Below, piece after piece: positions 17,825-50,775 of a stretch of DNA of 64,000 nt. The stretch is from Candidatus Nanoarchaeia archaeon (lineage in GTDB: Archaea; Nanobdellota; Nanobdellia; SCGC-AAA011-G17; JAFCDX01). Location: assembly GCA_041651575.1 (NCBI GenBank), contig JBAZJB010000001.1, positions 266,609 to 330,608 of the forward strand, given 5' to 3'. The notes under the pieces are model-generated. The model had not been told where the DNA came from. It saw only the letters and a list, made by a program, of their open reading frames with translations, and searched no databases. Position numbers and translations under genes: made by a program. Numbering within the stretch: position 1 is the stretch's first letter; each line of letters starts with the position of its first letter.

Positions 17825-20008
17825 ATGGCATCAGTAGCATCAGATAAACTTGTAGAACAAGTTATAGGTTTAATGAAAAAACCTGAACATATTAGAAATA
17901 TTTGTACTTGTGCTCATATTGATCATGGTAAAACTACATTCTCAGATAATTTATTACTTGGAGCTGGAATGATTTCAGAAGAATTAGCTGGAAAACAATT
18001 ATCTTTAGATTTTCACGAAGATGAACAACAAAGAGGAATTACTATTGATGCAGCTAACGTTTCTATGGTTCACCATTATAATAATGATCCTTATTTAATT
18101 AATTTAATTGATACTCCAGGACATGTAGATTTTGGTGGAGATGTAACAAGAGCAATGAGAGCTATCGACGGCGCTATTGTATTAGTATGTGCTGTTGAAG
18201 GAATCATGCCACAAACTGAAACTGTTTTAAGACAAGCTTTAAGAGAAAGAGTAAAGCCAGTATTATTCATTAACAAAGTTGATAGATTAATAAGAGAAGT
18301 TAAATTAACACCTGAAAAAATGCAGGAAAAATTCGTAAAAATTATTTCTGAAGTTAATAAAATTATATCTGGAATAGCACCAGAAGAATACAAAAAAGAA
18401 TGGCAAGTTTCTGTTGAAGAAGGTTCTGTTGCATTTGGTTCTGCTTTCCATAACTGGGCTTTATCTTTACCATATATGAAAACAACTAAATTAAGTTTCA
18501 AAGATGTTATTGATGCTTATGAAAAAGGAGAAGAAGCTTACAAAGAACTAGCAAAAAAAGCTCCATTACATGCAGTAGTATTAGATATGTCAATAAGACA
18601 TCATCCAAATCCAAAACAAGCTCAAGTTTATAGAATTCCAAAAATATGGAGAGGAGATTTAGATTCAGAAACAGGAAAATCCTTAATGAATTGTGATCCA
18701 AATGGTCCTGTTGCTTTTGTTTGTACAAAAATTGTTGTTGAAAAATTCGTAGGAGAAGTTGCAGCAGGAAGATTATTTTCAGGTACAGTTAGACAAGGAC
18801 AAGATGTTTGGTTAAATCTAGCTAAAAAACCAATTAGACTTCAACAAGTTTCAATTTACAAAGGATCTCAAAGATTACAAGTTGATGAAGCTGTTGCAGG
18901 AAATATTGTTGGATTAGTTGGATTAAAAGATACTTTTGCAGGAGAAACTGTTTCATCCATACCAATACAACCTTTCGAAGAAATAAAACATATTTTTGAT
19001 CCTGTAATTACTAAAAGTATTGAAGCTACAAAATCTGCTGACTTACCAAAATTAATTGAAGTATTAAGACAAGTTGGAAAAGAAGATCCTTCTATTGTTA
19101 TTCAAATCAATGAAGAGACAGGAGAAAATTTAATGTCGGGTATGGGAGAATTACATTTAGAAATCATAGAAAATAGAATTAAAACAGAAAAAGGACTTGC
19201 TGTAAAAACAAGTAATCCAATTGTATCTTACAGAGAAGCAATTACAAAAGAATCTCAAGAAGTCGAAGGAAAATCTCCAAATAAACACAATAAATTTTAT
19301 ATTAAAGTTAGTCCTTTAGATCCAAAAATTTATGATGCTATTAAAGCAGGAGAAATTCCAGAAGGAGAAGTTAAGAAAAAAGACGAAGGTACAATTAAAA
19401 AATTATTAGAATTAGGATTAGAAAATAAAGAAGCAAGATCTGTTGTTGATTTTTTCAAAGGAAATATGTTAGTTGATTCTACAAAAGGTATTGTTCACAT
19501 TGGAGAAGTTATTGAATTAGTAAAAGAATCATTCCATCAAGTTGTTACTGGAGGACCTTTAGCAAGAGAAACGGCAGTAAAAATGAGAGTTGATTTGATG
19601 GATTGTAAATTACACGAAGATACTATTCATAGAGGACCAGCACAAGTATTACCTGCAGTAAGAGATGCTATAAAAGATGCTATGAGAAATGCAGGAGCAG
19701 TTTTATTCGAACCATTACAAATATTACAAATGGAAGCTCCAATGCAATTCATGGGAGAAATAACAAAATTAATCCAAAATAAAAGAGGACAATTATTAGA
19801 AATGAGTCAAGAAGGAGAACATATTACTGTTAAAGCAAAATTACCTATTGCAGAATCATTTGGATTAGCTTCAGATTTAAGAAGTTGTACTGAAGGAAGA
19901 GGAGTTTTCTATTTAATAAACCAAGTATATGAAAAATTACCTGGCGATTTACAATTAAAAGTTATTAAACAAATCAGAGAAAGAAAAGGTCTTAGTGAAA
20001 ATCAGTAA
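17825..20008 (+). CDS. fusA: translation elongation factor 2 (aEF-2)
   Basis: 727 aa; NICTCAHIDHGKTTFSDNLL G1 motif, archaeal EF-2 architecture. Confidence 0.95.
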   Translation: MASVASDKLVEQVIGLMKKPEHIRNICTCAHIDHGKTTFSDNLLLGAGMISEELAGKQLSLDFHEDEQQRGITIDAANVSMVHHYNNDPYLINLIDTPGHVDFGGDVTRAMRAIDGAIVLVCAVEGIMPQTETVLRQALRERVKPVLFINKVDRLIREVKLTPEKMQEKFVKIISEVNKIISGIAPEEYKKEWQVSVEEGSVAFGSAFHNWALSLPYMKTTKLSFKDVIDAYEKGEEAYKELAKKAPLHAVVLDMSIRHHPNPKQAQVYRIPKIWRGDLDSETGKSLMNCDPNGPVAFVCTKIVVEKFVGEVAAGRLFSGTVRQGQDVWLNLAKKPIRLQQVSIYKGSQRLQVDEAVAGNIVGLVGLKDTFAGETVSSIPIQPFEEIKHIFDPVITKSIEATKSADLPKLIEVLRQVGKEDPSIVIQINEETGENLMSGMGELHLEIIENRIKTEKGLAVKTSNPIVSYREAITKESQEVEGKSPNKHNKFYIKVSPLDPKIYDAIKAGEIPEGEVKKKDEGTIKKLLELGLENKEARSVVDFFKGNMLVDSTKGIVHIGEVIELVKESFHQVVTGGPLARETAVKMRVDLMDCKLHEDTIHRGPAQVLPAVRDAIKDAMRNAGAVLFEPLQILQMEAPMQFMGEITKLIQNKRGQLLEMSQEGEHITVKAKLPIAESFGLASDLRSCTEGRGVFYLINQVYEKLPGDLQLKVIKQIRERKGLSENQ

Positions 20009-20038
20009 ATTTAAATAAGATTATTATATTAATAAGAT

Positions 20039-20455
20039 ATGGGGATTAAAGATTTTTTTAAACCAACAAAAACGAGGATTATTTATTCTACTATCTTTCT
20101 TATTATGATTTATTATATCTTATTTATCCTTAATGATTTTACACAACACTGTGAAATGATTGGAGATGTGGGATTTTGTCATTTTAGTCTACTTTTTACT
20201 TTAATATCCATTATAATTCCTGCACTATTAACCTATTTAATTATTGCCTTAATGATAAATAATAATTCTAAATTAAAAATAATTCGTTGGTTATTTAAAA
20301 TAACAATTCTTTTTTTTGGTTTATTCTCACTACATTCTGAAATAGTAAGATTTACAAGAGTGAATAAGATATATTATTTTAGTATTATTATAGGTATTTT
20401 TTGCGTAATCATTTCAACTCTATTAATTTACTTAGAATACAAAAAGAAAGATTAA
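20039..20455 (+). CDS. small membrane protein inserted between fusA and tuf
   Basis: 138 aa, four predicted TM helices. Confidence 0.35.
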   Translation: MGIKDFFKPTKTRIIYSTIFLIMIYYILFILNDFTQHCEMIGDVGFCHFSLLFTLISIIIPALLTYLIIALMINNNSKLKIIRWLFKITILFFGLFSLHSEIVRFTRVNKIYYFSIIIGIFCVIISTLLIYLEYKKKD

Positions 20456-20514
20456 TTGCATAATTACCCACCAAAACCTTTATAAATAAGTTTTAAATCA
20501 ATATTTTATTCAAA

Positions 20515-21795
20515 ATGGCAAGAACAAAACCACATATGAACATTGTATTTGTAGGTCATGTAGACCATGGTAAATCAACTACAGTTGGTAGACTATTATA
20601 TGATGCAGGTGGTATACCAGAAACAGAAATGAAAAAGCTTAAAGAAAAAGCTCAAGAATTAGGAAAAGCTGGTTTTGAATTCGCATTCGTTATGGATAAC
20701 TTAAAAGAAGAACAAGAAAGAGGAGTTACCATAGATTTATCACATAAAAAATTTATAACAAACAAATATGAATATACAATTATAGATGCTCCTGGTCACA
20801 GAGATTTCATTAAAAATATGATTACTGGAGCAAGCCAAGCAGATGTTGGTGTTGTTGTAGTAGCAGCTTCCGATGGAATTATGGAACAAACTAAAGAACA
20901 TATTTTCTTATGTAAAACTCTTGGTGTAAATCAATTAGCAATCTTAGTTAATAAAATGGATGTTGTTAATTTTGATGAAACTAAATTCAATGCAGTTAAA
21001 ACCAATGTTACAACTTTATTAAAATCAGTAGGATATAAAACAGAAGAAATTAATTTCATACCAGCAAGTTCATATTTAGGAGAAAATATTGTTAATAGAT
21101 CAACAAAAACTCCTTGGTATAAAGGACCAACATTAAGAGAACAATTAGATTTATTCAAAGAACCAGAAAAACCAACAAACTTACCATTAAGATTACCAAT
21201 TCAAGATGTATATAGTATTCAAGGTATTGGAGTAGTTCCAGTTGGAAGAGTTGAAACAGGAATTATGAAAATAGGAGATAAAGTTACTGTATGCCCAGGA
21301 AGAGAAGGTAAAGGTGTAAATGGAGAAGTAAAATCTATTGAAATGCATCATGAACAAATGACTGAAGCATTACCTGGAGATAATGTAGGATTTAACGTTA
21401 GAGGTATTGAAAAGAAAGATATAGCAAGAGGAGATGTTTTAGGACCTACAAGTAATCCTCCAAGTGTTGTTACAGAATTTACTGCTCAAGTTGTAATATT
21501 AAATCATCCAACAGTATTAACGGTAGGATACACACCAGTATTCCACATTCACACTTCACAAACAGCATGTAAATTTATAGAATTAGTTAAACAAATTAAT
21601 CCTGCAACAGGTGAAACAATAAAAGAACATCCTGATATGTTAAAAAATGGAGACGTAGCAATTGTTAAAATACAACCTACAAAACCTTTGGTAATTGAAA
21701 GACAAAAAGAAATACCACATATGGCAAGATTTGCAATCAGAGATGCAGGTACAACTGTAGCAGCAGGTATGTGCATTGATTTAGTGAAAAAGTGA
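20515..21795 (+). CDS. tuf: translation elongation factor 1-alpha (aEF-1A)
   Basis: 426 aa; [26 protein letters not shown] motifs. Confidence 0.95.
21761..21791 (+). repeat. attL-like direct repeat: last 31 nt of tuf (cagcaggtatgtgcattgatttagtgaaaaa)
   Basis: Identical apart from one transition to 37448..37478. Confidence 0.7.
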
Positions 21796-23418: not shown

Positions 23419-23435
23419 AATAAAACTCTTATTTA

Positions 23436-23487
23436 TTTATATCTATTTATTGATATTTAAATATTTATATCTATTTATTGATATTTA
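23436..23487 (+). repeat. two 24-nt direct repeats (tttatatctatttattgatattta) with 28-nt period, within an AT-rich repeat tract at 23430..23600
   Basis: Read directly; followed by aaataaata x2 and cat/att repeats; candidate operator, iteron or origin of the element. Confidence 0.5.
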
Positions 23488-28493: not shown

Positions 28494-28682
28494 TTCTTTT
28501 TAACCAGTTTTTCCTTTTAAAGAATTTCTAATATAAAAAGGTTCGTTTTTAGTCTATTAAAAAATAGGTCTTTTCTTTATAAATAAGTAAGATACTCCTT
28601 TTTAACAAACTAAATAAATAGGAAGATTTATAAAAAGGTAAATATATACCCCAATATATAGGTTGATGGGGTTAGTTAATTA

Positions 28683-29282
28683 ATGAATAAAAACTTAATA
28701 ATTTTGGTAGGGATATTTTTAATTCTCCCAATATTTGTATCTGCTGGAATACCTCATTCAGTTTATGGATTTTTACCTAGTTCTGATGGAACAACAATAA
28801 CAGCTTATGTAGAAAGTAGACCATCGGAGATTCTTACAGATAATATTGGTATAGGTGGAAATTCGAAAGTTAATGAAGGATGGTTAATTGATATAGGAAA
28901 TTTTAATACCCCCTGGAAAATTGGTGATATTTTAATTATAGAATTTCCTAATAAAAATATAAATTTAATTTTAAATGACGCTGGAGCTCAAGAAGTAAAA
29001 TATACAAGTTCAACAAAAGCTTCTATCACTACCATAACTAATGATTCGGATAAAGAAAGTATAAGTAACATAAATCCTATTGTAGGAAATAAAACTATAA
29101 CCGAACCAAAGAAAACATTACAACAAAAAACCATAAATTCTTCAAATAAAACAGAACTTAATAGTACTTTATCTGAGAATGAAAATAACAATAAAACAAA
29201 AAACTTTATAAAGTGGGGAATCTTTTTATTTCTAATAATTATAGTAGTGGGGGTTATATTTATAAGAAAGTTTAGAAAATGA
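28683..29282 (+). CDS. secreted surface protein with shared N-domain and C-terminal TM anchor
   Basis: 199 aa; signal peptide; AGIPHSVYGF...AYVESRPSEILTD domain shared with ORFs 31483 and 32142; C-terminal hydrophobic anchor plus KFRK. Confidence 0.45.
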   Translation: MNKNLIILVGIFLILPIFVSAGIPHSVYGFLPSSDGTTITAYVESRPSEILTDNIGIGGNSKVNEGWLIDIGNFNTPWKIGDILIIEFPNKNINLILNDAGAQEVKYTSSTKASITTITNDSDKESISNINPIVGNKTITEPKKTLQQKTINSSNKTELNSTLSENENNNKTKNFIKWGIFLFLIIIVVGVIFIRKFRK

Positions 29283-31498
29283 AATTATATAATTATTTAA
29301 TATTAATATTTTTATCTTTATTTATAATATCTACTTTTGTATATGCCTTATCTGAATCTTTTTTAATAGAACAAAGCGGGGATAAATTTAATTTAGGTCA
29401 AACTATTTATGGTTTAACGGGTGGAATTAGTGATACTTACCTTCCAATTTTACTTGCAAATCAAGTTTGGGTAGATAGTCAAGGAATAAATACTGGAACT
29501 TATAATTATCAACAATTTTTAGATTTCTATGCGGTAACTAATGTTAGTACAGGAAAAGGTACTGCTGGTTATGTATATCAACAAGACTCAAATAGAGATA
29601 ATAAACCTGTAGATGATTACCTATTTTTTGATAACATCGATACTTATCAAAAATGGGTGTCCTATTGGAATGGGACTGCTGTGGTATCTGGTTATATAAA
29701 TTATACTTCTTACGCATTTGCATGGAATTATACCTTAGATATACTTGGTTCTGAAGTAAAGGTAAAAGATGCATCCGATATTGAAGGTACGGTTTTAACT
29801 ATTTTAGGAACAAATTATACCATTGCAGATGCTACTGTCAGTAATACATCATATGGTATGCTTGATAAGTTAATTTTACTTGGAGGAAATGAAATCATCA
29901 TCTTTGAGGGAGAAACTAAAAATGGAGTTACTGTTACAGGCGTTGATGTTGCTGAAACAAAATGTATAATTCAATATGATAGTACACCTTATATTATAAA
30001 TTTAGGGGAAATTCAAACAATGCCAGACGGTTTAATGATTGGGGTTTTAGACGTGACGTATATGGGAGCAGGTTTAGATATTTGTGAATTAGCTCTCGGA
30101 GCAAAGAAAATTATATTAGAACAAAATAAAGAAGTAGAAGTTAATGGAATTAGAATAGTTAATACTACTGTTAGTTTGAATGATGGAACAACAGGATTTA
30201 ATCAATTATCTATAGTTTATATTCCTACTAACAAAACATATTTGAAAGCAGGAGAATCTTTGAAAGACCCAGTTTTTAATGCATTTGCAATAACTTTAGA
30301 TAAAATTGTTGAATCCACAGAAGAAATTAAAATAGACCCACAAGGAGATAAAGTAAAATTAACTGTTAAAAATAAATTGGGAAATCCACTTAATAATTTT
30401 ACCATATGTCATTTAAATGGAACAAAAGTTTCAGGTGCAAGAAGTTTTGTATGGGGGGATGTTAATAATCCGTTTATTGCTTGGGAAGGTGCCGGGGTAA
30501 ATATTACTAATAATACTATGAATGTAGCAAGATTAGACCAAATGACGGGAATTAGATTCTTAGCAGAAGGGAATAAAGAATCACATATTTATGAAATTAT
30601 AAACATAGATACTTCCGCAAACGAAACAGATATTAAAGAACTTGATACAGGATACATTTATTATAATCTTCCTTATTATGAAGGGCGAGTTACAACTTTT
30701 AGTGATATAAACTATAATATACAATTAGCTTTTGACCAAGATACAAGTACCAAAATGCAATGGATTAATTTTACACATCTTTCAGATGCATATGGTATGA
30801 ACTATTGGACAAAGAATGGTGGAAATATTACTTTTGGTAATACTTCTTCTATGTTAAATCAAAATGCAAATGCTGTTGATAATTGTTCAATTAAATTTGG
30901 TGAAGTTGATGTATCCAAAGAATCAGGAATTCATTTAAAACTTTTGAACTTTACTTTCTTATGGGATTCAACAGACGATGAAATTGAATTTGCAAAATAT
31001 TCTGTTGATGGTTCAGCACAAAGTAAAATTGGCTCAGGTTATTTTGTTCAAAAATATAATAATGATAGTTACACAAAAACCACAAGAACCGAATATGGTA
31101 CTAAAGTTGATATAAATCTAAAGAACGATGGTGAAGCAATAATCTACTATCCAGATGAAGCTACATATGCAGAAGTTAAAATATATGCTTTAGAAAATCC
31201 TCTAACTCCAATTGGCGGTAGCGGGGGGGGCGGTGGTGGTTCGGGTGTAGTTGAATTAATAAAATCTACAAATAAAACTGGAGTTAATGCAATTTCTCTT
31301 CCTCCAAATACAGGATTAGTAAATGCTGAAGATATTTGTGATAGTATAACTTATTCAGATGCTGTAACAAAATGGGACCCTTATACTCAAATGTATAGTG
31401 GACATCCTTGTGGAACACCTGTTAATAATTTTAATTTAGAATATGCTGTTGGGTATTTTGTAAGTATTACTCAAAATTCAACATGGAGTTTACAATGA
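29279..31498 (+). CDS. large secreted surface (glyco)protein with poly-Gly linker and shared C-terminal domain
   Basis: 739 aa; signal peptide; many N-x-S/T sequons; GGSGGGGGGSG linker; C-terminal domain shared with ORF 31483. Confidence 0.5.
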   Translation: MKLYNYLILIFLSLFIISTFVYALSESFLIEQSGDKFNLGQTIYGLTGGISDTYLPILLANQVWVDSQGINTGTYNYQQFLDFYAVTNVSTGKGTAGYVYQQDSNRDNKPVDDYLFFDNIDTYQKWVSYWNGTAVVSGYINYTSYAFAWNYTLDILGSEVKVKDASDIEGTVLTILGTNYTIADATVSNTSYGMLDKLILLGGNEIIIFEGETKNGVTVTGVDVAETKCIIQYDSTPYIINLGEIQTMPDGLMIGVLDVTYMGAGLDICELALGAKKIILEQNKEVEVNGIRIVNTTVSLNDGTTGFNQLSIVYIPTNKTYLKAGESLKDPVFNAFAITLDKIVESTEEIKIDPQGDKVKLTVKNKLGNPLNNFTICHLNGTKVSGARSFVWGDVNNPFIAWEGAGVNITNNTMNVARLDQMTGIRFLAEGNKESHIYEIINIDTSANETDIKELDTGYIYYNLPYYEGRVTTFSDINYNIQLAFDQDTSTKMQWINFTHLSDAYGMNYWTKNGGNITFGNTSSMLNQNANAVDNCSIKFGEVDVSKESGIHLKLLNFTFLWDSTDDEIEFAKYSVDGSAQSKIGSGYFVQKYNNDSYTKTTRTEYGTKVDINLKNDGEAIIYYPDEATYAEVKIYALENPLTPIGGSGGGGGGSGVVELIKSTNKTGVNAISLPPNTGLVNAEDICDSITYSDAVTKWDPYTQMYSGHPCGTPVNNFNLEYAVGYFVSITQNSTWSLQ
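31223..31230 (+). repeat. G8 homopolymer within the Gly-linker coding region of ORF 29279..31498
   Basis: gcggggggggcgg read directly; genome is about 30% GC, so this run is conspicuous. Confidence 0.8.
31364..31435 (+). repeat. 72-bp perfect direct repeat (copy A) shared by surface-protein genes 29279 and 31483
   Basis: Identical to 31987..32058 (gtaacaaaatgggaccc...aataattttaat). Confidence 0.85.
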
Positions 31499-32121
31499 AA
31501 AATAAAATAAAAATCATTCAAATTTTTTGTTTGTTAATGTTATTAAGTTTACCTCTTATATCAGCAGGTACGCCTCACATTAATTGGGGTTATGTAAATG
31601 ATGCTGTAGATGGAACATTAGCAAATGGGGCTAATGTTACGGCTTATATAGAAACAAGACCTACAGAAATATTAACAGATATTGTAGGAGTTACTGGTAA
31701 TTCTGGAATATCAAATGCTTGGTTAATTGATACTGGTAATTTTCCAACTGCTTGGTCAGCAGGGAATAACTTAATAATACAAATTGATAAAAATGGTTAC
31801 AAATCAAACACAAATATAATATTAGATAACTCTGGCTCTCAACAAAGTGTTAATATGACTCTTTCAAAAATTTTAATATTAGTTAAACCTATCAATAAAA
31901 CTGGAGTTAATGCTATATCTTTATTATGGAATAGCCAATTAATTACTGCCCAGGATATTTGTAATGATGTTCAATATTCAGATGCAGTAACAAAATGGGA
32001 CCCTTATACTCAAATGTATAGTGGACATCCTTGTGGAACACCTGTTAATAATTTTAATATAGAAAAGGGAGTAGCTTATTTTGTAAGTGTTACTCAAAAT
32101 TCAACTTGGGTGATGAAATAA
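31483..32121 (+). CDS. secreted protein made of the shared N-domain plus the shared C-domain (minimal family member)
   Basis: 212 aa; N-domain AGTPHINWGY...AYIETRPTEILTD...NFPTAWSAGNNLII; C-domain NKTGVNAISL...TKWDPYTQMYSGHPCGTPVNNFN. Confidence 0.5.
   Translation: MEFTMKNKIKIIQIFCLLMLLSLPLISAGTPHINWGYVNDAVDGTLANGANVTAYIETRPTEILTDIVGVTGNSGISNAWLIDTGNFPTAWSAGNNLIIQIDKNGYKSNTNIILDNSGSQQSVNMTLSKILILVKPINKTGVNAISLLWNSQLITAQDICNDVQYSDAVTKWDPYTQMYSGHPCGTPVNNFNIEKGVAYFVSVTQNSTWVMK
31987..32058 (+). repeat. 72-bp perfect direct repeat (copy B)
   Basis: See copy A. Confidence 0.85.
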
Positions 32122-32141
32122 AAAGAGTTATATATTATTAA

Positions 32142-34832
32142 ATGGACAATATAAAAATGAAAAATAAATTTAAAATAGGATTTTTATCAATTCTCTTAGT
32201 TTTATCTTTAATCTCGGTTAGTAATTTGGTTTCAGCAGGAACACCACATACAGTGTATGGATATGTATTTGATGCTACTGACGGAACATTAGCAAATGGA
32301 GCTACTATTACAGCGTATATTGAATCAAGACCTTCTGAGACATTAACTGGTACAGTGGATGCAACAAATTGGTGGGATATTGATGTAGGTAATTTTCCAA
32401 CTGCTTGGTCAGCAGGAAATAATTTAATAATTAAAGTTGATAAAAGTGGGCATAAAGATACTACAAATATAATTCTTGATACAAGCGGTGCACAACAAGC
32501 TTATGATATGACTTTACTTCCACAATACGATTTAGATTTATCACCAACTACTCAAACGATTAATACGGTTCCAGGAGTAAATTATTATGAATATTATATT
32601 AATATAACTAATATGGGATATGCAAATGATACTTTTCTTGTATATTTGAATGGAGAATATCAGTATACAACTGATGTACTTCCTTCTTATTGGTATACAG
32701 AAGATATGTGGTATTCTAATACTACAGACACTTTAGCAGGTACATATATAGATAATATAACGGTAGTATCTCAACATGATTCAACTAAAAGAAAAACTTT
32801 TTTACTTACAATAATTGTTAATCCAATATATGGCATAGATTTATCTCCAAAAACACAAAGTATTAGTGTATATCAAGGAACAGATTTTGAAGTTAGTTAT
32901 AATGTTACTAATATTGGGAATATAAATGATACTTATTTAGTTTACTTAAATGGAAAATATAATTATAGTATTGATGAACTTCCTTCTTATTGGTCTTCAG
33001 AAGAGTTTTGGGATTATACTGCAGATGAACCTATAGGAACAGTATATACAGACCTATTTTTTGTAATATCAGAACATAATCCAAATGTAAATGATACTTT
33101 TGCATTAACTGTAACAGTTATTGCTCCTCCCTGTGTTCCTAATTGGATTTTAAATTCTACTTGGACAACCTGTAATCTACTTGATTCACAATCTAAAAAT
33201 TATTATGATTCAAATAGTTGTGGAAATGAAACAGGAAAGCCTACAGATATAACACAATCATGTGATTTTTGTACTCCTAATATAATTGCTATAGCACCCG
33301 GAAGCTGTTCAATAAATGATACAGCTACCACAATTTTTGATGACTCAAATAATTGTTATGCTCAAACTGGATTGGAAAGCGACCAAGTTCCAAATCCAAT
33401 TGTAAATTCTTGTGACTATTGTACTCCTTCCATAAGTTCAAGTAATTCAACTTGTGGAACAAATGATTTATTCACAGAAACATTTACAGATTCAAATGGT
33501 TGTTATGCTCAAACAGGACTTATTTTAGATAATGTTCCTTTATCACTACAATATACTTGTGATTATTGTACTCCAAATATCCAAACCACAACAGAAAACT
33601 GTACTACAAGTGATACTTACACTACCACATTCACAGATTTAAATGGTTGTTTTGGTGTAACTGGATTAGTTTTAGACGCTGTTTCTGTACCAACAATAAA
33701 TTCATGTGATTATTGTACTCCATTAATAACCTCCACTAATTCAACATGTCAACCAAATAATACTTCAACAGAAACATTTACAGATTCAAATGGTTGTTAT
33801 GGTTTAACAAATTTAAACGCGGATAAAATTCCAAATCCAATAATATATGGTTGTGTTTATGTAGCCCCTTCTTGTTCTCCCGATAATTGGACATTAAATA
33901 CCACTTGGTCAAGTTGTAATGCAAATGATTTACAATACCAAGTTTATTATGACCCAGATAATTGTAATAATAACACAGGAAAACCTACCGATGTAAGTCA
34001 AGCTTGTGATTTTTGTACTCCAAGTATATTTGATACAAATTCTACTTGTCAATTAAATGATTTATTTACACAATCATTCTCCGATAATAATAATTGTTTT
34101 GCTCAAACAAGTCTTGTAGCAGACAAAGTTCCAAATAGTAATAGTTATTCTTGTGATTATTGTACTCCTTTAGTTGTATTAACAAATTCAAGTTGTAGTA
34201 TTAATGATACCTTTACAGAAAGTTTTACAGATTCAAATGGTTGTTATGCTCAAACAAATTTGGCTTCAGATATAGTAATACCTGCTCCAACATTATATGC
34301 TTGTGATTTCTGTAATCCCTCATTAACATCCACTAATTCAACATGTCAACCAACCAATACTTTAACAGAAATCTTTGCAGATTCAAATGGGTGTTTTGCA
34401 TTAACTAATTTAGTTTCTGATGATATCTTTATTCCTAATCAAATAGTATATAATTGTACTTATGTTGCTCCAGTAACTTCTTCTGGTGGCGGAGGAGGCG
34501 GTGGTGGAGGCGGAGGTTCAGGTAAACCAACCTGTGTTGAAAAAGATTATAATTTCACAGATTGGTCAGAATGTTTAGTAGATGGAAAATCAACAAGAAC
34601 TTATATTTTGAATAATAAAAAATGTATTAAAAATACAAAAACATATGATGTAACTTTATACTTAGAAAAAGATTGTTATTATAAGGAAGAAAAACCAGTA
34701 CAAGAATCAATAGAAGAAGATAGTGGTATGACTGGAATTACTGGTGGGGCAGTTGTAGATGGAAATGGTTTATTTAGTTCAATAGGAGATTTCTTCTCAG
34801 GTATTTGGAATTGGTTTAAAAATTTATTTTAA
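32142..34832 (+). CDS. giant secreted surface protein: shared N-domain, duplicated ~100-aa domain, about 12 tandem Cys-rich ~45-aa repeats (CDYCTP...), poly-Gly linker
   Basis: 896 aa; repeat units SCDYCTP(S/N)I...NSTC...FTDSNGCYAQT(G/N)L; linker SSGGGGGGGGGGGSG. Confidence 0.5.
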   Translation: MDNIKMKNKFKIGFLSILLVLSLISVSNLVSAGTPHTVYGYVFDATDGTLANGATITAYIESRPSETLTGTVDATNWWDIDVGNFPTAWSAGNNLIIKVDKSGHKDTTNIILDTSGAQQAYDMTLLPQYDLDLSPTTQTINTVPGVNYYEYYINITNMGYANDTFLVYLNGEYQYTTDVLPSYWYTEDMWYSNTTDTLAGTYIDNITVVSQHDSTKRKTFLLTIIVNPIYGIDLSPKTQSISVYQGTDFEVSYNVTNIGNINDTYLVYLNGKYNYSIDELPSYWSSEEFWDYTADEPIGTVYTDLFFVISEHNPNVNDTFALTVTVIAPPCVPNWILNSTWTTCNLLDSQSKNYYDSNSCGNETGKPTDITQSCDFCTPNIIAIAPGSCSINDTATTIFDDSNNCYAQTGLESDQVPNPIVNSCDYCTPSISSSNSTCGTNDLFTETFTDSNGCYAQTGLILDNVPLSLQYTCDYCTPNIQTTTENCTTSDTYTTTFTDLNGCFGVTGLVLDAVSVPTINSCDYCTPLITSTNSTCQPNNTSTETFTDSNGCYGLTNLNADKIPNPIIYGCVYVAPSCSPDNWTLNTTWSSCNANDLQYQVYYDPDNCNNNTGKPTDVSQACDFCTPSIFDTNSTCQLNDLFTQSFSDNNNCFAQTSLVADKVPNSNSYSCDYCTPLVVLTNSSCSINDTFTESFTDSNGCYAQTNLASDIVIPAPTLYACDFCNPSLTSTNSTCQPTNTLTEIFADSNGCFALTNLVSDDIFIPNQIVYNCTYVAPVTSSGGGGGGGGGGGSGKPTCVEKDYNFTDWSECLVDGKSTRTYILNNKKCIKNTKTYDVTLYLEKDCYYKEEKPVQESIEEDSGMTGITGGAVVDGNGLFSSIGDFFSGIWNWFKNLF

Positions 34833-35157
34833 AAATACTAATTAAATTATTTGTAATTTCTTTAATAAGTTTATTTAATTGTATTCATTCTTCATATCTT
34901 TATTATAATAGGATTCAGAAAAAACAATAAAATAACCTATTTATTTTCTCTATCAATCTTTTCTCTTATAGCTCCTAAAACAAATTCTGCTCTTGACCTA
35001 TATCCTTTCTTACTCTTTTTCCAGGTTTTATCAATTTCATTGATTAACTCTGAAGGAACACTAACATTTACATAATTTTTTCTCATACTGTATATGTACC
35101 AAAACATTTATATAGCCCTTTTTGTTACCCATACCGTATAGAAAAAGAGGTTAGAAA

Positions 35158-35520
35158 ATGAAAATTAAATTAATAATCGGATTACTTATAATTTCTATAT
35201 TTTTAATAAGTGGATGTAATCAAGAAAATATTAATCCTGCTCCCTTGAATTGGCAAGAATTATTAGATAATTGTCAAAAAAATTTAGATGAATGTAAAAT
35301 GCTTGGAATTCCAAAAATAACAGAATTTACTATTAATACTGAAGATTTAATAGGAAAAAAAATTGACTTTGATATATGTAAAATAGAATGGGTGAAACAA
35401 AACCCAGATTTACCTTTACCTAGTCAATGTTCTATTCAAGTTTGGGGGAACCAATTTCAAAAAAATCCAGATAAATTAATAAATTTAAAAGTTTTTTGTG
35501 ATTGTTGGTATAAAGAATGA
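35158..35520 (+). CDS. small lipoprotein (LISGC lipobox-like)
   Basis: 120 aa. Confidence 0.4.
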   Translation: MKIKLIIGLLIISIFLISGCNQENINPAPLNWQELLDNCQKNLDECKMLGIPKITEFTINTEDLIGKKIDFDICKIEWVKQNPDLPLPSQCSIQVWGNQFQKNPDKLINLKVFCDCWYKE

Positions 35521-36260
35521 AAATGAAAATAATATTGGGGACATTAGTACTTTGTTTATTTCTTATAAGTGGATGTAATAATGGAATAATTTGTAACAAA
35601 CCTTATATTCAAGTAGGAACTGAGTGTTGTTTAGACCAAAATAGTAATTCTATTTGTGATAAAGATGAACCAGAAAAAAATGAAGAAAAGAATTATTCTA
35701 CAATAAATTCTGGTATAATATTACCAGAAGGAAAATGTATTATTAAAGGTTCAGTTGCTCCTACTGTTATAGATGTAACCTGCACCCAAAATAGTGATTG
35801 TTACGAATCTGCTCGAGGTATAGGCACTACTGATATGAGTTTAGTTTATTGTTCTGGAGCCACACAATCAGAAGGAATACAAACTTTTAAAGAATGTAAA
35901 GAGTATGATAAAGAAAAAGGTTTATGGACAGGAACAGTGTTATGTAAAGATAAACAAGATTGTTATGATTTCTATCAAAAAGTGAACCAATATTATAGTG
36001 ATGTTCCAATTCCAGAAACAATGGATTGTAAAGAGACATCATTTAAAAAACTTCCTGATACAAACAATAATTTTATAAGTTGTAATACTAACATAGATTG
36101 TATTGAAAAAATTATGCCTGGAATTAATTCACCAGAAATACCCTCAGAATTACGTTCTTTATATTTAGAATATTATGGTATAAGATGTAATAATAATTTT
36201 TGTGAAGTAAATGAAGGACTCTTTACTCAGTGGGGAAGTAGTTTTGTTAGTAAAATATAA
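35517..36260 (+). CDS. Cys-rich lipoprotein, paralog of chromosomal 12829..13383
   Basis: 247 aa; LISGCNNGIICNKPYIQVGTECCLDQNSNSICDKD. Confidence 0.45.
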   Translation: MKMKIILGTLVLCLFLISGCNNGIICNKPYIQVGTECCLDQNSNSICDKDEPEKNEEKNYSTINSGIILPEGKCIIKGSVAPTVIDVTCTQNSDCYESARGIGTTDMSLVYCSGATQSEGIQTFKECKEYDKEKGLWTGTVLCKDKQDCYDFYQKVNQYYSDVPIPETMDCKETSFKKLPDTNNNFISCNTNIDCIEKIMPGINSPEIPSELRSLYLEYYGIRCNNNFCEVNEGLFTQWGSSFVSKI

Positions 36261-36285: not shown

Positions 36286-36936
36286 TTAAATAAAAATTTT
36301 ATCTAACTCCACTTTTTCTTTTTCTATACCAATATGCGTATAAATTTGTGTAGCCCTGTTATCTGTATGCCCAAGCATTTTTCCAATAGCCAATAAGTCC
36401 ATACCTTTATTATAAAGATATGTTGCATACGTATGTCTTAATGTATGGAACCTATAATTGAATACTTTTCTGCCCTTACTATCAAATCCGATTGAGGTTC
36501 TTATACCTGCCTTTTCTAAATGACTATTAAATTTTTTTCTCATCACAGAAATGTTATATTGTTTATCTAATCTCAAACGCATAGGGAATAGATATTTACT
36601 ACCTCCTATATACTGCAACCATTTATCCAAAAGTGGAATTAATGGTTTTGGTATTGCTACATTTCTATCTTTACCATATCCTTGAACAGACCTATTTGGA
36701 TTTTTAGAATCTTTTATAGATAAAACTCGATTATATATATCGATGTCTTCTACTTTTAATTTACATAATTCTCCAATTCTTAATCCACAAAAAAACCCTA
36801 ATAAATAAGCCATCATATAAAGAGGTTCATTTACCACCCCAAATAATCTTTTTAATTCTCTTATTTCAAATACTTTTGGTAGTTTATATGGTGATTTCGC
36901 TTTGTCTCCTCTAAACATTTTCGTCAAGCCTCCCAA
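36286..36936 (-). CDS. int: tyrosine recombinase/integrase, catalytic domain
   Basis: 216 aa; GLRIGEL (Arg), HTLRHTYAT (HxxR), TQIYTH (Tyr nucleophile). Confidence 0.7.
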   Translation of the reverse strand: MGGLTKMFRGDKAKSPYKLPKVFEIRELKRLFGVVNEPLYMMAYLLGFFCGLRIGELCKLKVEDIDIYNRVLSIKDSKNPNRSVQGYGKDRNVAIPKPLIPLLDKWLQYIGGSKYLFPMRLRLDKQYNISVMRKKFNSHLEKAGIRTSIGFDSKGRKVFNYRFHTLRHTYATYLYNKGMDLLAIGKMLGHTDNRATQIYTHIGIEKEKVELDKIFI

Positions 36937-37327: not shown

Positions 37328-37447
37328 CTTAAGTACCTCCTATATTTTAATTTAGATGTCAGAAAAAGGGTTACCCCAAAACTGAAAAAAATAGGTAAAA
37401 AGTACCCAAATAATATAAATTTGGATTTAAATTTTGGTAGTGAGCTC

Positions 37448-37478
37448 AGCAGGTATGTGCATTGATCTAGTGAAAAAA
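37448..37478 (+). repeat. attR-like direct repeat: duplicated tuf 3' end, still encoding ...[11 protein letters not shown]-stop
   Basis: 30/31 identity to 21761..21791; reading frame conserved with synonymous substitutions (tta->cta, aag->aaa) and its own stop. Confidence 0.7.
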
Positions 37479-38443: not shown

Positions 38444-38530
38444 AATATGTGAGGATTATAATTATATTTAACTTTTTTGGAAAACAAAAATCTTTATAAA
38501 TCCCTTATTTTATTAAATCTTAAAGAAAAA

Positions 38531-38839
38531 ATGGAAAAAGCGAGAATAAACATATCAAGTTCAGATATCAACAAAATAAATGAATTATGTAATTCTATTA
38601 AAGATATTGCTGAAAAAACTGGAACAAAAATCAGAGGACCTATACCTTTACCAATGAAAAAATTAAAAATGACTACAAGAAAAAGTCCTTGTGGAAATGG
38701 AAAAGCTTCCTTTGATAACTTTGAAATGAGAATTCATAAAAGATTAATTGATCTTGGCGTAGATGAAAGAGCACTAAGATTAATTATGAGAGTAAAAATA
38801 CCAGAAGATGTTCAAATTGCAATTGAGATGTTAGAATGA
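38531..38839 (+). CDS. rps10: 30S ribosomal protein S10 (uS10). Start placed at the internal Met downstream of the TATA box; the ORF-track start 38477 is probably too far upstream.
   Basis: KIRGPIPLPMKKLKMTTRKSPCGNGKASFDNFEMRIHKRLIDL matches the uS10 core; TATA tctttataaat about 25 bp upstream of 38531. Confidence 0.75.
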   Translation: MEKARINISSSDINKINELCNSIKDIAEKTGTKIRGPIPLPMKKLKMTTRKSPCGNGKASFDNFEMRIHKRLIDLGVDERALRLIMRVKIPEDVQIAIEMLE

Positions 38840-39160: not shown

Positions 39161-40628
39161 ATTCCTGTTGATCCTGCAGGAGAATGCTGCTATTGGGATT
39201 CGATTAAGCCATGCAAGTCAGGGGTAGCAATACACCGGCATAAGGCTCAGTAACACGTCGATAATCTAACCTTAAGTCTAGGATAACCTTGGGAAACTGA
39301 GACTAAAACTGGATAAAAGAAAGATACTGGAATGTTTTTTCTTTGAAAGGTAACGCTTAAGGATGAGTTGGCGGCTGATTAGGCTGTTGGTGAAGTAAAG
39401 GCTCACCAAACCAAAGATCAGTAGGGGCCCTGAGAGGGGTAGCCCCGAGAAGGGTACTGAGATACTGACCCTAGCCCTAAGGGGTGCAGCAGGCGCGAAA
39501 ACTTTACAATGCGCGAAAGCGTGATAAGGGAATCCCAAGTGCTTATCCATTGGATAGGCTTTTGCCAAGTGTAAAAAGCTTGGAGAATAAGTGGTGGGCA
39601 AGACTGGTGCCAGCCGCCGCGGTAACACCAGCGTCCACGAGTGGCATTCACTATTATTGGGTCTAAAGCATTCGTAGTTGGTTTGTCAAGTCTTTTGTGA
39701 AATTGTTGGACTTAATTCAACAGCGTGCAAGAGATACTAACAAGCTCGAGACCGGGAGGGGACAAGAGTATTTCAGGGGGAGCGGTAAAATGTTATAATC
39801 CTTGAAAGACTTCCAGTGGCGAAGGCGCTTGTCCAGAACGGTTCTGACAATGAGGAATGAAAGCTAGGGGCGCAAAGCGGATTAGATACCCGCGTAGTCC
39901 TAGCCGTAAACGCTGCGAGCTATGTGTTGCATATTCCTAGAGAATGTGCAGTGCCTAAGTGAAGACGTTAAGCTCGCTACCTGGGAATTACGGTCGCAAG
40001 GCTGAAACTTAAAGGAATAGGCGGGGGCTCACACAAGGAGTGGAGTGTGCGGTTCAATTGGATTCCACCCCGGAAATCTTACCAAGATCGACGGCAGAAT
40101 GAAGGTCAGATTAAAGGTTTTACCTAACAAGCCGAGAGGTATTGCATGGCCGTCGTCAGCTCGTGCCGTAAGGTGTCCAGTTAAGTCTGGCAACGAGCAA
40201 GACCCACATGTATATTTGCTAACATTTCAGTAATGAAGAATGAGCACAATATATGGACTGCCTGTGAAAACAGGAGGAAGGCGTGGGCAACGATAGGTCC
40301 GTATGATCTGAATATCTTGGGCTACACGCGCGCAACAATGGTAGGGACAATGGGTCACAACTCCGAGAGGAGAAGTTAATCCTCAAAACCCTATCTTAGT
40401 CTAGATCGAGCATTGAAACTCATGCTCGTGACAACGGAATTCCTAGTAATCGTTCATCACTATTGAACGGTGAATATGTCCCTGAGCCTTGCACTCACCG
40501 CCCGTCAAACCATTCGAGTAGGGTTCAAATGAGGTCTGTTTTTTAGAATAGAACAAATTTGGATTCAATAAGAAGGGTTAAGTCGTCACAAGGTATCTGT
40601 AGGGGAACCTGCAGATGGATCACCTCCT
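39161..40628 (+). rRNA. rrs: 16S rRNA (archaeal)
   Basis: 5' attcctgttgatcctgcagg; internal gtgccagccgccgcggtaa; 3' ggatcacctcct; flanked by a complementary processing stem (39091..39117 with 40665..40688). Confidence 0.9.
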
Positions 40629-40688
40629 ATATTTTTTTAAAATATAATATAATAAATAATAGAACTCACTAAATGCTTTTGCTCATAC

Positions 40689-40824
40689 TTGATTAACTGG
40701 GCCTGTAGTTCAGCGGTAGAATACCTCCCTTGCACATAAATTTTTGATAAAATTTTATCGAAGAAAGGAGGGGGTCTCGGGTTCGAAATAGTTTTTTCAG
40801 AAATTGAATAACTTTGAAAATCCC
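40689..40824 (+). tRNA. tRNA-Ala(TGC) with two introns: canonical anticodon-loop intron (40725..40755) and a 33-nt T-loop intron (40778..40810, between positions 59 and 60)
   Basis: Exons fold into acceptor GGGCCTG/CGGGTCC, D arm GTTC/GAAT, anticodon arm CCTCC-CTTGCA-GGAGG, T arm TCGGG-TTCGAAT-CCCGA, discriminator A. Confidence 0.65.
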
Positions 40825-40920
40825 GACGGGTCCACATTTAAGTATTTATTTATGAGGATCCATAACATAATTGTTTGGGTTTGATAGTTAATATATCATA
40901 TTAACTGTGCATAGGATTTG

Positions 40921-43806
40921 GAATACACTATTAGGTGGAAGACTAGGTTCAAAGTTCGAAGAAGGACGTGGCAAGCTACGATATGCTCTAGGGAGACGCA
41001 TGCAGTCTTAGAACTAGAGATTTCCTAATTAGATTCTATCTCTTCGGAGAAATCAGAAATGATAGGTTACGCGGAGAATTGAAGCGTCTTAGTATCCGCA
41101 GGAAAAGAAATCAATTCGAGATGCTGTTAGTATCAGCGAGAGAAAACAGCAGAGAGCAAACTGAATCCTACTGGAAACAGCAAGGAAATGTGGTGTTGAA
41201 GACTCATTTTTAGTCTTAACTGAGAATACAAAGTTTTCTGGAAAGAAACACTGTAAAGGGTGATAGTCCCGTAGTATTTAATCAGAAGATGTATGAGTAT
41301 CTTGAGTAAGGTCTATCGGAATTTAGGCCTGAATTTGGGAGACATTTACTTCCAACTCTAAATATTGCTTTGAAACCGATAGCGAATAGTACCGTGAGGG
41401 AACGTTGAAAAGAACTCGTAATAGAGAGTGAAAAGAATCTGAAACCTAATAGTTATAGCATGATGCTGCTCTTAGGAGTTGCATCGTACGTTTCGAATAA
41501 CGGGCCAGGGAGTTTACTTAAGTAGCAAGGTTAATTTGAAAAAAGAAACCGAAGCGAAAGCGAGATCCCGCAGTTCACGAGGGGAAAAGTATGAAAATGC
41601 TTTAAGTTACTTAGGTATGACCCGAAACCGATCGATCTAATCCAGGGCAAGGCGAAGTTTCTGTAAAAGGAAATGGAGGCCTGAAGAGGTTCTGTGAGAA
41701 AGCGTTCTTCTGACTCTGGATTAGGAGTGAAATGCCAATCGAGACCGGTAATAGCTGGTTCCTGTCGAATTTGATCTGAGTCAAGTCTCAACAGAGGAAG
41801 CTTAAATGGTAAAGATCCTGATTTGAGGTTTTGGCTAGGAAACTAGTCGGCCTCTTGTCAAACTAAGAACGTTTAAGTTCTGTAGAAGTTGGGAAACGGG
41901 GTTGTGGGGTAAGCTCGCAATCCAACAGGGGAACAACCCAAGCCAACAGTTAAGGTCCCAAAATATCAATTAAGTGTTAACGGGTGAAAGGTGTATACTA
42001 TCTCAGACAGAAGGGAGGTAGGCTTAGAAGCAGCCATCCTTTAAAGAAAGCGTAATAGCTCACCTTTCAAGATAGTGTGCCCTGAAAATGGACGGGGCTA
42101 AATTGATTACCGATACTGTTGAAATCTGAAAAGATATTGGTAGACAGGCGTTTTTCTTGGATAGAAGTATTTTCGTAAGAAGATATGGACCAAGTAAAAT
42201 TGCGAATCCTGGCGGTAGTACGGAGCAACACAATGTTAGAATCATTGGTATCGTAAGGGTAAGGGTTTCTCAGCAATGCAGTTCAGCTGAGAGTTAGTTG
42301 ATCCTAATCACTACATAATTTGAAGAGTGAAAAAGGGAAAAAGGTTAAAATTCCTTTACTATCTAAGTACATTCGGCAACGAAATTTTAATTTTTGACAC
42401 TTTGGGATAGACCAACATTTTTAATCTGAAATGTCAATCAAAATAAATTGCAGGAGTATCGTAATGATGAGAATGCAATTAAATTTGAGATGAGTGGACA
42501 TTTGTTCATTTGGTTAATTTCTAGAGTCCATGAAAAGGAAATTAAAAGGATCTTAGATAATCATACCCAGAACCAGCACAGGTACCCTAGGTGAGAAACC
42601 TAAGATATGAGGGAAGAATCGAGTTAAGGGAACTCGGCAAATTAGTCCCATGCCTTCGGTATAAGGGATTCCTGCGATTGTATTTGTACGAATGCAATTA
42701 CAGGATGCAATAACAAGGGCGGTCCGACTGTTTAACAAAAACATAGCTTTCCGCTACTCTGTAAAGATTAGTATGGAAGGTGAAGTCTGCCCAGTGCGAG
42801 TATCCGAACATTCCTTCCAAGGAAACTAAGGACTCGTAAACGGCGGGAATAACTATAATTCTCTTAAGGTAGCGTAATACCTTGTCGTTTCAATGACGAC
42901 TTGCATGAATGGCGTAACGAGATTGTCACTGTCCCTAACTCGAATCCCCCGAACACTATATTCAGGTGCAAAGTCCTGAGACCTCCAGTGGGAAGCAAAG
43001 ACCCCGTGAAGCTTCACTATAGTCTGTTATTGTAGTGTGAAATTTTATGTGCAGTGTAGGTGGTAGCTGCTAAGACTCAGACGCTAGTTTGAGTATAGGC
43101 GAAATATGAGACACCACTCTTAAAATTTTATATTGCTAACTTCTGAAAGGAAGGACAGTAGCTGATGGATAGTTTGGCTGGGGCGGCATGCTCTTGAAAC
43201 GGTATCAAGAGCACCCAAAGGTCAGCTCATTTGGTTTAGAAATCCAAAGTAGAGTGTAAATGCAAAAGCTGGCTTAACTGTACTCTGAACAATAAAGGGT
43301 GCAGGAAGGAAACTTTGGTTTAGTGAACCCCTATGCTTCGTTTATGGGAGCTAGGGCTAATAGAAAAGCTACTCCGGGGATAACTGAGTTGTCGCGCCTG
43401 AGAGCTCATATCGACGGCGCGGTTTGCTACGACGATGTCGGCTCGCCTTATCCTGGCTGTGCAGAAGCAGCCAAGGGTGGGGGTGTTCACCCATTAAAAA
43501 GGCTCGTGAGCTGGGTTCAATACGTTGCGAAACAGTATGTTCGATATCTAGTGGAGGTGTTCGTGTCTGAGTGGAAAGATCATTTAGTACGAGAGGAACG
43601 GTGGTCTGGGGCCTCTGGTGTATCTGTTATCTGATAAGGTAGGCAGAGCAGCTACGCCCCTTGGGATAAGAACTGAAAGCATCTAAGTTCGAAGCCCTCC
43701 GCGAAAAGAGACACACATAAAATGCTCATAGAAGATGAGCTTGATAGGATCGAGGTGTAAGCATCAAGGTAACGAGATGTTCAGCCTGCGGTTACTAACA
43801 TTTTTT
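40921..43806 (+). rRNA. rrl: 23S rRNA (ends approximate)
   Basis: gaagaaggacgtggcaagctacgata near the 5' end; conserved 23S blocks throughout (e.g. gacccgaaacc-like, GTPase-centre and sarcin-ricin regions); flanking processing stem 40906..40919 with 43812..43825. Confidence 0.85.
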
Positions 43807-43916
43807 TCCAAAAATCCTATGCACATTTATTTTTTATTTCTATAAATTTTTCCAAATCCTAAATTTTAATTTCTTAAAACATTAAATTTATATATAGCTA
43901 TTGCAGTATACATTAT

Positions 43917-48290: not shown

Positions 48291-49436
48291 ATGGAAACTA
48301 TAAAAGGGTTTAGAGATATTATTGGAATTGATGCAATTAAAAGAGAAAGAATTAAAGAGATTCTTATAAAAAACTTTAAACTTTATGGTTTTGAACCTGC
48401 AGAAACACCTATAATTGAAGCAGAAGAGTTTGTTAAAGCAGATAATACAAGTGAAGTTATCTCTGATATTTATAGATTACAAGATAAAGGACAAAGAAAA
48501 TTAGCTTTGAGATATGAATTTACTTTTCAATTAAAAAGACTTGCTCAAAACAAAAAATTACCTTTTAAAAGATATCAACTTGGAGAAGTTTTTAGAGATG
48601 AACCTGTAAGTTCTAATAGATTCAGGCAATTTACTCAATGTGATGTTGATATTGTTGGTTCTAGTATAAAAGATGAAGCAGAAATATTATCTCTGACTAA
48701 AAAAATCTTTGAAGATTTAAAAATTGATTGTGTAATTTATATGAATAATAGAAAATTACTAAATGAAATACTTGATAAAAATAATATTTTTAATAAAATA
48801 GAAGTTATAAAAGAAATTGATAAATTGGATAAATTAGATGAGAAAGAGATAAAAGAAAACTTAAAAAAGTATAAAGCAGAAAAAATACTTGATATATTTA
48901 AAAAACCAGAATCTTATTTTAAAACCTTTGATTCTTATAAAGAAATTGAAGAACTTAAAAAATATTGTGAATATTATAATGTTGAAATTAAGTTTTTACC
49001 TTCTTTAGCTAGAGGTTTAAGTTATTATAACGGAACTATTTTTGAAATAAAAACAAAAGAGATGAAAGAAACTATTTGTGCAGGAGGAAGTTATTTAATT
49101 AATAATATTCAATCTAGTGGAATTTCTTTTGGATTGGATAGAATTGGTTCTATTGCTCAAGTTGATGTTGATGAAAAAAAGGTTTTGATAATTTCTCTAG
49201 AACAAGATAAAAATTCAATAGAACTAGTTAAAAAATTAAGAAAAAACTTTGTTTCTGTAGATATAATGTTCGGAAAAGTTTCTAAAGCTTTGGAATTTGC
49301 AAATTCTTATAATATTCCTTATGTTGTGTTCATTGGAGCTGAAGAAATTAAAAAGAAAAAATATAAATTAAGAGACATGAAAACAGGCAAAGAAACTTAT
49401 TTATCTGAAAAAGATTTAATTAAGAAGTTACTATAA
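48291..49436 (+). CDS. hisS: histidyl-tRNA synthetase (short form)
   Basis: 381 aa; class II motifs KRYQLGEVFRDE, RFRQFTQCDVDIVG; N-terminal GFRD. Confidence 0.7.
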   Translation: METIKGFRDIIGIDAIKRERIKEILIKNFKLYGFEPAETPIIEAEEFVKADNTSEVISDIYRLQDKGQRKLALRYEFTFQLKRLAQNKKLPFKRYQLGEVFRDEPVSSNRFRQFTQCDVDIVGSSIKDEAEILSLTKKIFEDLKIDCVIYMNNRKLLNEILDKNNIFNKIEVIKEIDKLDKLDEKEIKENLKKYKAEKILDIFKKPESYFKTFDSYKEIEELKKYCEYYNVEIKFLPSLARGLSYYNGTIFEIKTKEMKETICAGGSYLINNIQSSGISFGLDRIGSIAQVDVDEKKVLIISLEQDKNSIELVKKLRKNFVSVDIMFGKVSKALEFANSYNIPYVVFIGAEEIKKKKYKLRDMKTGKETYLSEKDLIKKLL

Positions 49437-50739: not shown

Positions 50740-50775
50740 AAAGGAAAAGATTTAATTAAGAAGTTACTATGATTT

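Follow-up and report, generated by a model that had tools for sequence, protein, structure and literature searches.

A putative four-gene surface-protein operon with two shared domains and an S-layer paralogue on an integrative element of a 'Candidatus Nanoarchaeia' archaeon

The DNA analyzed here, referred to as the window, is a 64-kb stretch of a 766-kb contig from a 'Candidatus Nanoarchaeia' (DPANN) metagenome-assembled genome obtained from short reads. Four adjacent genes at 28683-34832 encode putative secreted proteins that share two small domains, designated N and C. One of the four is, by alignment, a paralogue of surface-layer (S-layer) proteins in which the family-specific termini appear to be exchanged for a poly-Gly linker and a single C domain. 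The reading that we tentatively favor is that the products of the four genes assemble into one membrane-tethered surface complex by way of these two non-catalytic modules, with the S-layer paralogue as one of its parts. Such a common complex becomes more probable because the S-layer copy has its usual end swapped for a shared domain. The window is archaeal, with a 16S-23S rRNA operon and an RNase P RNA, and its G+C content is ~27%.

The four genes and their N and C domains

An earlier note on this DNA had described four adjacent genes as a modular family of secreted proteins, and the open reading frames (ORFs) are indeed as described there, with signal peptides that are read directly from the sequence, as is the C-terminal transmembrane helix of ORF 28683. 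The genes are as follows:

28683-29282, + strand: ORF 28683, 199 aa, N-anchor protein
29279-31498, + strand: ORF 29279, 739 aa, S-layer-body paralogue with a single C domain
31483-32121, + strand: ORF 31483, 212 aa (208 aa from the NCBI start at 31495), putative N+C adaptor protein
32142-34832, + strand: ORF 32142, 896 aa, N domain with a large cargo
28627..28636, + strand: candidate archaeal TATA box TTTATAAAAA, ~50 nt upstream of the first gene, proposed from sequence alone

The first three genes are joined by start/stop overlaps of the ATGA type (starts 29279 and 31495). The overlap with the upstream stop makes 31495 the likely start of ORF 31483, a protein identical to WC413_01605 at NCBI. 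An ATGA overlap also joins the X-C and N-C genes, the counterparts of ORF 29279 and ORF 31483, of L001, a related 8.8-kb JGI contig with the same gene set. Because the four genes are co-directional, and because the ATGA overlaps are kept in L001, we take them to form one operon as part of our best reading. The density of N-X-S/T sequons in the four proteins is 1.9-3.0 per 100 aa, which is 4-6-fold the window median of 0.52; together with the signal peptides, this suggests that all four are secreted and glycoprotein-like. Their parts are:

ORF 28683: signal peptide (aa 1-20), N domain (aa 21-105) and a stalk rich in N, S and T
ORF 28683, 29214-29264, + strand: C-terminal transmembrane helix (aa 178-194), then a basic tail, RKFRK
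ORF 29279, + strand: signal peptide, body (aa 26-640, 29354-31195) and poly-Gly linker (31217-31248)
ORF 29279, 31241-31495, + strand: C domain (aa 655-739)
ORF 31483, + strand: N domain (31564-31857) and C domain (31870-32118), from domain comparisons
ORF 32142, + strand: signal peptide, N domain (32235-32516) and two ~100-aa repeats (32584-32752 and 32884-33052)
ORF 32142, ~33140-34470, + strand: eight to nine 49-aa units with four cysteines each, period 147 nt
ORF 32142, 34485-34516, + strand: poly-Gly, then a Cys-containing tail

The N domain is common to three of the genes at 41-60% identity (E 2e-19 to 4e-41), as the earlier note had it. ORF 31483 and ORF 32142 are 60% identical over 126 aa (E 4e-41), ORF 31483 and ORF 28683 41% (E 3e-26), and ORF 28683 and ORF 32142 45% (E 2e-19). 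The C domains of ORF 31483 and ORF 29279 share 70% identity over 83 aa (E 2e-39), and ORF 31483 consists of N plus C, also in agreement with that note. In scans with hidden Markov models (HMMs) built from relatives, N is confined to ORFs 28683, 31483 and 32142, and C to ORF 31483 and ORF 29279 (E 1e-29 in the latter). ORF 29279 thus has no N domain in the scans, and the large central region that had been placed between N and C is present in none of the four proteins. Strongly conserved motifs of polar and aromatic residues are present in both domains (N: PH..G, R.xE.LT and GNF..W; C: W(D/N)..Q.Y..H..G...NF). The 49-aa repeat of ORF 32142 also has a recognizable pattern, with four conserved cysteines arranged as CDYCTP…C…D.N.C; in total the protein has 40 Cys residues and 25 sequons, and its cargo part has no relative in Pfam, NCBIfam or the PDB sequences.

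Structure prediction, a check put forward in the earlier note, gave an AlphaFold2 model of mature ORF 31483 (N+C) with a predicted local distance difference test score (pLDDT) of 96 and a predicted template modeling score (pTM) of 0.77. N is a transthyretin-like β-sandwich, similar in fold to solved members of the transthyretin, carboxypeptidase-regulatory (PF13620) and CnaB types. This likeness does not extend to a Pfam sequence match, as PF13620 matched none of the 56 N/C domain sequences scanned and the N domains stayed below every Pfam threshold; the sole PF13620 match in ORF 32142 (16 bits, aa 537-560) lies outside its N domain. C is predicted to be a small α/β domain, with six strands and one helix in the model. 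A natural N-C-C-N segment was modeled with a pLDDT of 91 and a pTM of 0.69 for its four domains. Both models are compact, and we infer that domains independent of each other could not give such pTM values.

Neither domain has a match in Pfam or NCBIfam, a search of PDB sequences with an N/C profile was empty, and a literature search found no description of either. Word-indexed protein searches recovered few relatives, two with ORF 31483 and nine with a profile of 56 N/C sequences. When an N+C profile was searched exhaustively with HMMER, with results given as one representative per 50%-identity cluster, 960 such representatives were obtained at E <= 1e-3, of which 310 reached E <= 1e-10. On these profile matches, N and C are large uncatalogued families of archaea and bacteria. 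The carriers sampled include an Aenigmarchaeota β-helix protein (DPANN) and a candidate division KSB1 protein with features of the type IX secretion system (T9SS), and among the cargos of the relatives are subtilases, NosD-type β-helices, CotH and dockerin-bearing proteins. The clustering of N-bearing genes is not confined to archaea, because in bacteria (L004, 155-5501, and L005, 200-5483) three adjacent genes all carry an N domain; one of the trio contains C-C as well, and a T9SS sorting tail is present in two.

The main rival reading, which we consider unlikely, is that N and the C-C pair are independent ligand-binding or spacer modules (glycan-binding, adhesive or similar to carbohydrate-binding modules). 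Each protein might then hold S-layer glycans or the surface of the DPANN cell's host, and the genes would be neighbors merely through tandem duplication and domain shuffling. This would be in line with the N fold, which is common in adhesins, pilins and carbohydrate-binding modules, and with the strong conservation of polar and aromatic motifs of a kind often seen in binding sites. It would also agree with the use of the domains in bacteria as accessory parts of subtilases, β-helix proteins, CotH and proteins with dockerin or T9SS tails. The arrangement of the C domains and of the genes, described below, is where this rival meets difficulty.

ORF 29279 and the pairing of C domains

The central body of ORF 29279 (aa 26-640) is homologous to that of the PF05124 S-layer family (Methanococcales/Thermococcales type). 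It aligns with aa 78-683 of the Nanoarchaeia protein P0166 (PHD81_00930) at 58% identity over 631 aligned positions, and it is 39% identical to a second PF05124 member, P0167. The PF05124 scores of P0166 and P0167 are 34.7 and 40.4 bits (gathering cut-off 23.9), whereas ORF 29279 itself gives no PF05124 match at E <= 0.1. In the two family members, the profile (positions 16-175) matches N- and C-terminal segments, spanning aa 42-773. By alignment, these terminal segments are missing from ORF 29279, which has a signal peptide and the poly-Gly linker plus C instead. From these alignments, ORF 29279 is best described as an S-layer-protein paralogue in which the PF05124 termini are exchanged for poly-Gly and one C domain. 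The genomic settings also differ, in that P0166 is chromosomal, among core genes (IF-2B, RuBisCO) and with no N or C genes near, whereas ORF 29279 is located on a mobile element (see below). A PDB sequence search with the S-layer alignment returned no match, and no description of an element-borne S-layer gene in DPANN was found in a literature search. A second, partial S-layer-body paralogue occurs both in the same genome (P0169, WC413_00010) and in a related one (P0168, PHD81_01005), in each case fused to a long Cys-rich N-terminal region. The S-layer paralogy, the pairing of C domains elsewhere and the size of the families across archaea and bacteria are the points that the earlier note missed.

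Domain architectures were compared in 151 proteins, drawn from the best 150 of the ~960 hits. They comprise CC (53 proteins), CCN (47), NCC (18), NCCN (14), CCCC (1), N (13) and NN (2), and three proteins with an odd number of C domains: ORF 29279, ORF 31483 and the N-C protein of L001. In every other C-bearing protein of this set (133/133) the C count is even, and the linkers inside the C pairs measure 1-12 aa. N and C-C occur together in one chain in 79 of the 151 proteins. The counts are most simply read as C being functional only when paired, and in this operon the pair would be made between two co-translated chains. At a related locus, L002, an X-C-C gene precedes genes of the N-anchor and N-cargo kinds, and an N-C gene is absent; in the window and in L001, X-C and N-C genes stand in place of the X-C-C gene.

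A C-bearing protein is found beside an N protein at five archaeal loci (the window, L001, L002, L011 and L012), and at all of these except L011 the N protein is little more than N with a C-terminal anchor. At L011 the N gene, which follows a NosD-C-C gene, is cut by the contig end. At L012 the anchor is a tail, IPEF...RKRLF, that by eye resembles a PEF-CTERM signal, and a similar tail is present in P0061. The PEF motif expected for PEF-CTERM/archaeosortase sorting is absent from the C-terminal end of ORF 28683, despite its transmembrane helix and RKFRK tail. NCBIfam models gave no score on the IPEF-tailed relatives scanned, two of them from an array at L012 (507-4478). This array consists of five small secreted proteins that share the tail IPEFPI(A/T)ALPA(V/L)LSM(L/F)SFGL(V/I)R(K/R)(K/R)LF, and its first protein carries an N domain and follows an X-C-C gene. 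Scans of genome, metagenome and viral contigs with the pattern GHPCGTP(V/I)N(N/D)F, the N+C protein, ORF 29279 and the integrase as queries found no further loci; the metagenome collection did not include L001's own contig.

Because N and C-C are fused in many proteins and their genes keep a conserved neighborhood, we take the anchored N protein to function jointly with the C-C unit, and docking is the form of interaction that we propose. The reading of N and C-C as independent modules leaves two observations unexplained, namely that the sole single-C proteins in the set are translationally coupled neighbors and that a small anchored N protein lies by C-bearing proteins at four of the five archaeal loci.

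Gene conversion and the integrative element

The earlier note had reported a perfect 72-bp repeat, which is confirmed here:

31364-31435, + strand: copy 1, core motif VTKWDPYTQMYSGHPCGTPVNNFN of the ORF 29279 C domain
31987-32058, + strand: copy 2, in the ORF 31483 C domain

The two copies are identical at 72/72 positions and constitute the longest exact direct repeat of the 64-kb window (the runner-up is 34 bp). When the four C-domain coding sequences of the window and L001 are aligned, the flanks of the tract are only 67% and 73% identical between the window paralogues, and there each N-C copy is nearest to its orthologue (76% and 85%). The tract itself matches at 72/72 positions between the window paralogues and at 48/72 between those of L001. 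Even at the identity of the best-conserved comparison, the chance of 72 straight matches is 0.78^72, or ~2e-8. Because of the divergent flanks and the 48/72 identity in L001, the repeat is a gene-conversion tract and not a chance match. The center of the C domain was accordingly homogenized in the window lineage after its split from the L001 lineage. The N domains behave similarly, with 70% (window) and 79% (L001) identity between the N-C and N-cargo proteins of one genome and 52% between the N-cargo orthologues of the two genomes. This pattern points to evolution in concert, with N domains more alike within a genome than between orthologues.

An assembly artefact, that is a collapsed or chimeric paralogue, could be suspected in a short-read metagenome-assembled genome, but is hardly credible as the source of the 72-bp identity. 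Both copies, with distinct flanks, are contained in L007, a MEGAHIT k141 contig from ENA that may share reads with our source and is 100% identical to 22157-44832 (22.7 kb). The repeat is no collapse artefact because k (141) exceeds its length, so that single k-mers span it and no tangle of the assembly graph can arise from it; in addition, each reading frame is intact.

From the conversion, the earlier note had gone on to ongoing cassette exchange and a variable surface-antigen system. Conversion itself is borne out by the 72-bp tract and the concerted N domains, which are also what would speak for antigenic or phase variation by swapping of cassettes between expressed and silent copies. Such variation is very improbable here. 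No silent or promoterless cassettes and no invertible segment were seen; both copies are full-length, of the expressed type and in one operon; the conversion homogenizes the most conserved motif and not a variable loop; and the two assemblies are identical. A diversity-generating retroelement was considered separately and rejected, given that 72/72 identity is the opposite of a template/variable pair and that no reverse transcriptase is present among the element ORFs scanned; an inversion mechanism was likewise discarded. Recombination among the modules is thus real, with homogenization of copies and no diversification as its effect.

The genes for EF-2 and EF-1α, identified by reading translations, lie at 17825-21795 (EF-1α at 20515-21795), and that of ribosomal protein S10, the usual archaeal neighbor of EF-1α, lies 16.7 kb beyond EF-1α at 38477-38839. 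The interval is marked by these features:

21761..21791, + strand: attL, a 31-bp direct repeat within the last codons of EF-1α
37447..37477, + strand: attR, the second 31-bp copy, encoding the same C-terminal peptide and stop (the displaced EF-1α 3' end)
36286..36936, - strand: tyrosine recombinase (integrase; PF00589, E 7e-27), just inside the right end, by attR

The repeat consists of 20 exact bases, one mismatch and 10 exact bases. Because of this att repeat, the integrase and the separation of EF-1α from S10, we read the interval as an integrative element of ~15.7 kb, of a type not assigned, that contains all four genes; here the earlier note, which had placed the genes in an integrated element, holds. 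The arrangement has much in common with integration at the 3' ends of tRNA genes, the usual targets of archaeal integrases, in that the integrase lies beside one att site, the repeat is the last ~31 bp and the target gene is left intact. The target differs, however, as it is the protein-coding EF-1α (tuf) gene, for which a replacement end is supplied. No empty integration site was found, and an exact look-up of the S10 protein returned the same genome only.

Also encoded in the interior of the element are an HTH_3 (helix-turn-helix) regulator, a dual-specificity phosphatase and a protein with a weak likeness to SprT. Two small Cys-rich proteins with lipobox-like signal peptides (…LISGC) are encoded at 35158-35520 and 35517-36260, in the stretch from the operon to the integrase gene; the 5' ends of the two genes are 73% identical at the DNA level, and neither has a family match in Pfam or PHROG. 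An ORF of 56 aa at 34937-35107 (- strand), a called gene in L007, is flanked by the surface operon and these lipoprotein-like genes and by eye resembles a candidate ribbon-helix-helix regulator. In a coding-poor stretch of the element (~23.4-23.6 kb), a 26-bp AT-rich sequence is repeated at a 28-bp offset (23434-23487) and may be an iteron or regulatory repeat.

If the element were a provirus, the four proteins might serve in the virion envelope or in receptor binding, and an enveloped, pleolipovirus-like particle would fit the anchored spike. The surface cluster and the two lipoprotein-like genes fill half of the 15.7 kb, alongside HTH regulators and the integrase, and the signal-peptide and C-terminal-anchor layout of ORF 28683 presumably resembles that of archaeal virus spikes. 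We nevertheless hold this to be improbable. No capsid, packaging or replication gene was recognized among the element ORFs. A PHROG scan of ten element proteins gave nothing but a single weak match (E 0.003), to a family without an assigned function, tblastn against 50,697 phage records found no match, and in IMG/VR neither the C motif nor ORF 29279 nor the integrase had relatives, although viruses of DPANN are poorly known and missing matches are therefore weak evidence. In L002 the same gene set has a methyltransferase-like gene and one for an HTH regulator as neighbors, and the modules are common among cellular proteins. The tail-fibre-like or receptor-binding role suggested in the earlier note likewise finds no relatives in these phage and virus collections.

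Outside the element, a 283-nt spacer lies between the 16S and 23S rRNA genes (39161-43817), with no tRNA in it according to ARAGORN, and the RNase P RNA lies ~100 nt past the 23S gene. A near-identical ~45-bp intergenic sequence (…TGTAACTACTTTAGAGTAATATTATAACC…) occurs at 50005-50050 and 51055-51100, upstream of the + strand genes 50086 and 51135. A 26-bp repeat (49409-49434 and 50745-50770) is located at, or just past, the 3' end of each preceding gene. These repeats at 50-51 kb may reflect a regulatory site in common or the duplication of gene flanks.

A proposed surface complex and docking system

In the surface complex that we tentatively favor, the single C domains of ORF 29279 and ORF 31483 would pair first, which would join the S-layer-like protein to the N+C adaptor and rebuild the C-C unit of the single-chain relatives. 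In a second, weaker step, N and the C-C unit would be binding partners, and C-bearing cargo would be held at the membrane by the anchored N protein, as in cohesin-dockerin or SlaB-SlaA systems. Recombination of paralogous modules (the 72-bp tract in C and the concerted evolution of N) would keep the copies alike, and by carrying the operon the mobile element would add or replace part of the host envelope.

Several points weigh against this assembly. In HMMs of the first (C1) and second (C2) domains of tandems, both window C domains are weakly 'second-C-like', not one of each type. Homodimers of single C domains are equally possible. The C fold has no convincing match among solved structures, ORF 32142 appears to have no clear membrane anchor, and the best 150 of ~960 hits is a limited cover for the architecture counts. 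In bacteria, N-C-C-N lies inside proteins that have their own T9SS sorting tail, and in that setting the modules need not serve for docking. Plain fission of one C1-C2 tandem was examined as an origin of the two genes and rejected, because C1 and C2 are not each represented among the two single C domains.

A close comparison is with cohesin and dockerin of the cellulosome, which likewise employ small non-catalytic modules on many secreted cargos, an anchored protein with the partner module and a two-module adaptor. However, neither the four proteins nor the 56 N/C sequences have a Pfam cohesin or dockerin match, no calcium-binding repeat is present, and binding is in our case a proposal. In a further departure from the cellulosome pattern, N and C-C often share one chain. 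The two-component S-layer of Sulfolobales, SlaA/SlaB, is another comparable system.

A wider proposal, which we regard as distinctly doubtful, is that N and paired C-C are the two halves of an undescribed docking system used by many uncultivated archaea and bacteria, and that in this genome an element with the full set, an S-layer paralogue refitted with the docking module included, remodels the envelope of its host. Such a system would hang S-layer-like proteins, proteases and β-helix proteins on a membrane-anchored N protein, and remodeling the envelope of an ectosymbiotic host cell might exclude rival elements or alter attachment. If docking is wrong, the locus would be a tidy but ordinary case of surface proteins that shuffle domains and undergo gene conversion.

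DPANN archaea have a lifestyle of attachment to other cells, to which their surface proteins, mostly unannotated, are central. The locus defines two large domain families that Pfam and NCBIfam lack, with ~960 cluster representatives. It also offers a clear natural case of a paired domain whose halves are seemingly divided over two co-translated proteins, so that a specific heterodimer is predicted, and an example of a mobile element with an S-layer paralogue whose anchoring part has apparently been exchanged. If the docking proposal is true, it would explain how many secreted proteins that lack an anchor stay on archaeal cells, and a symbiont's envelope would be shown to be open to rewriting by mobile elements.

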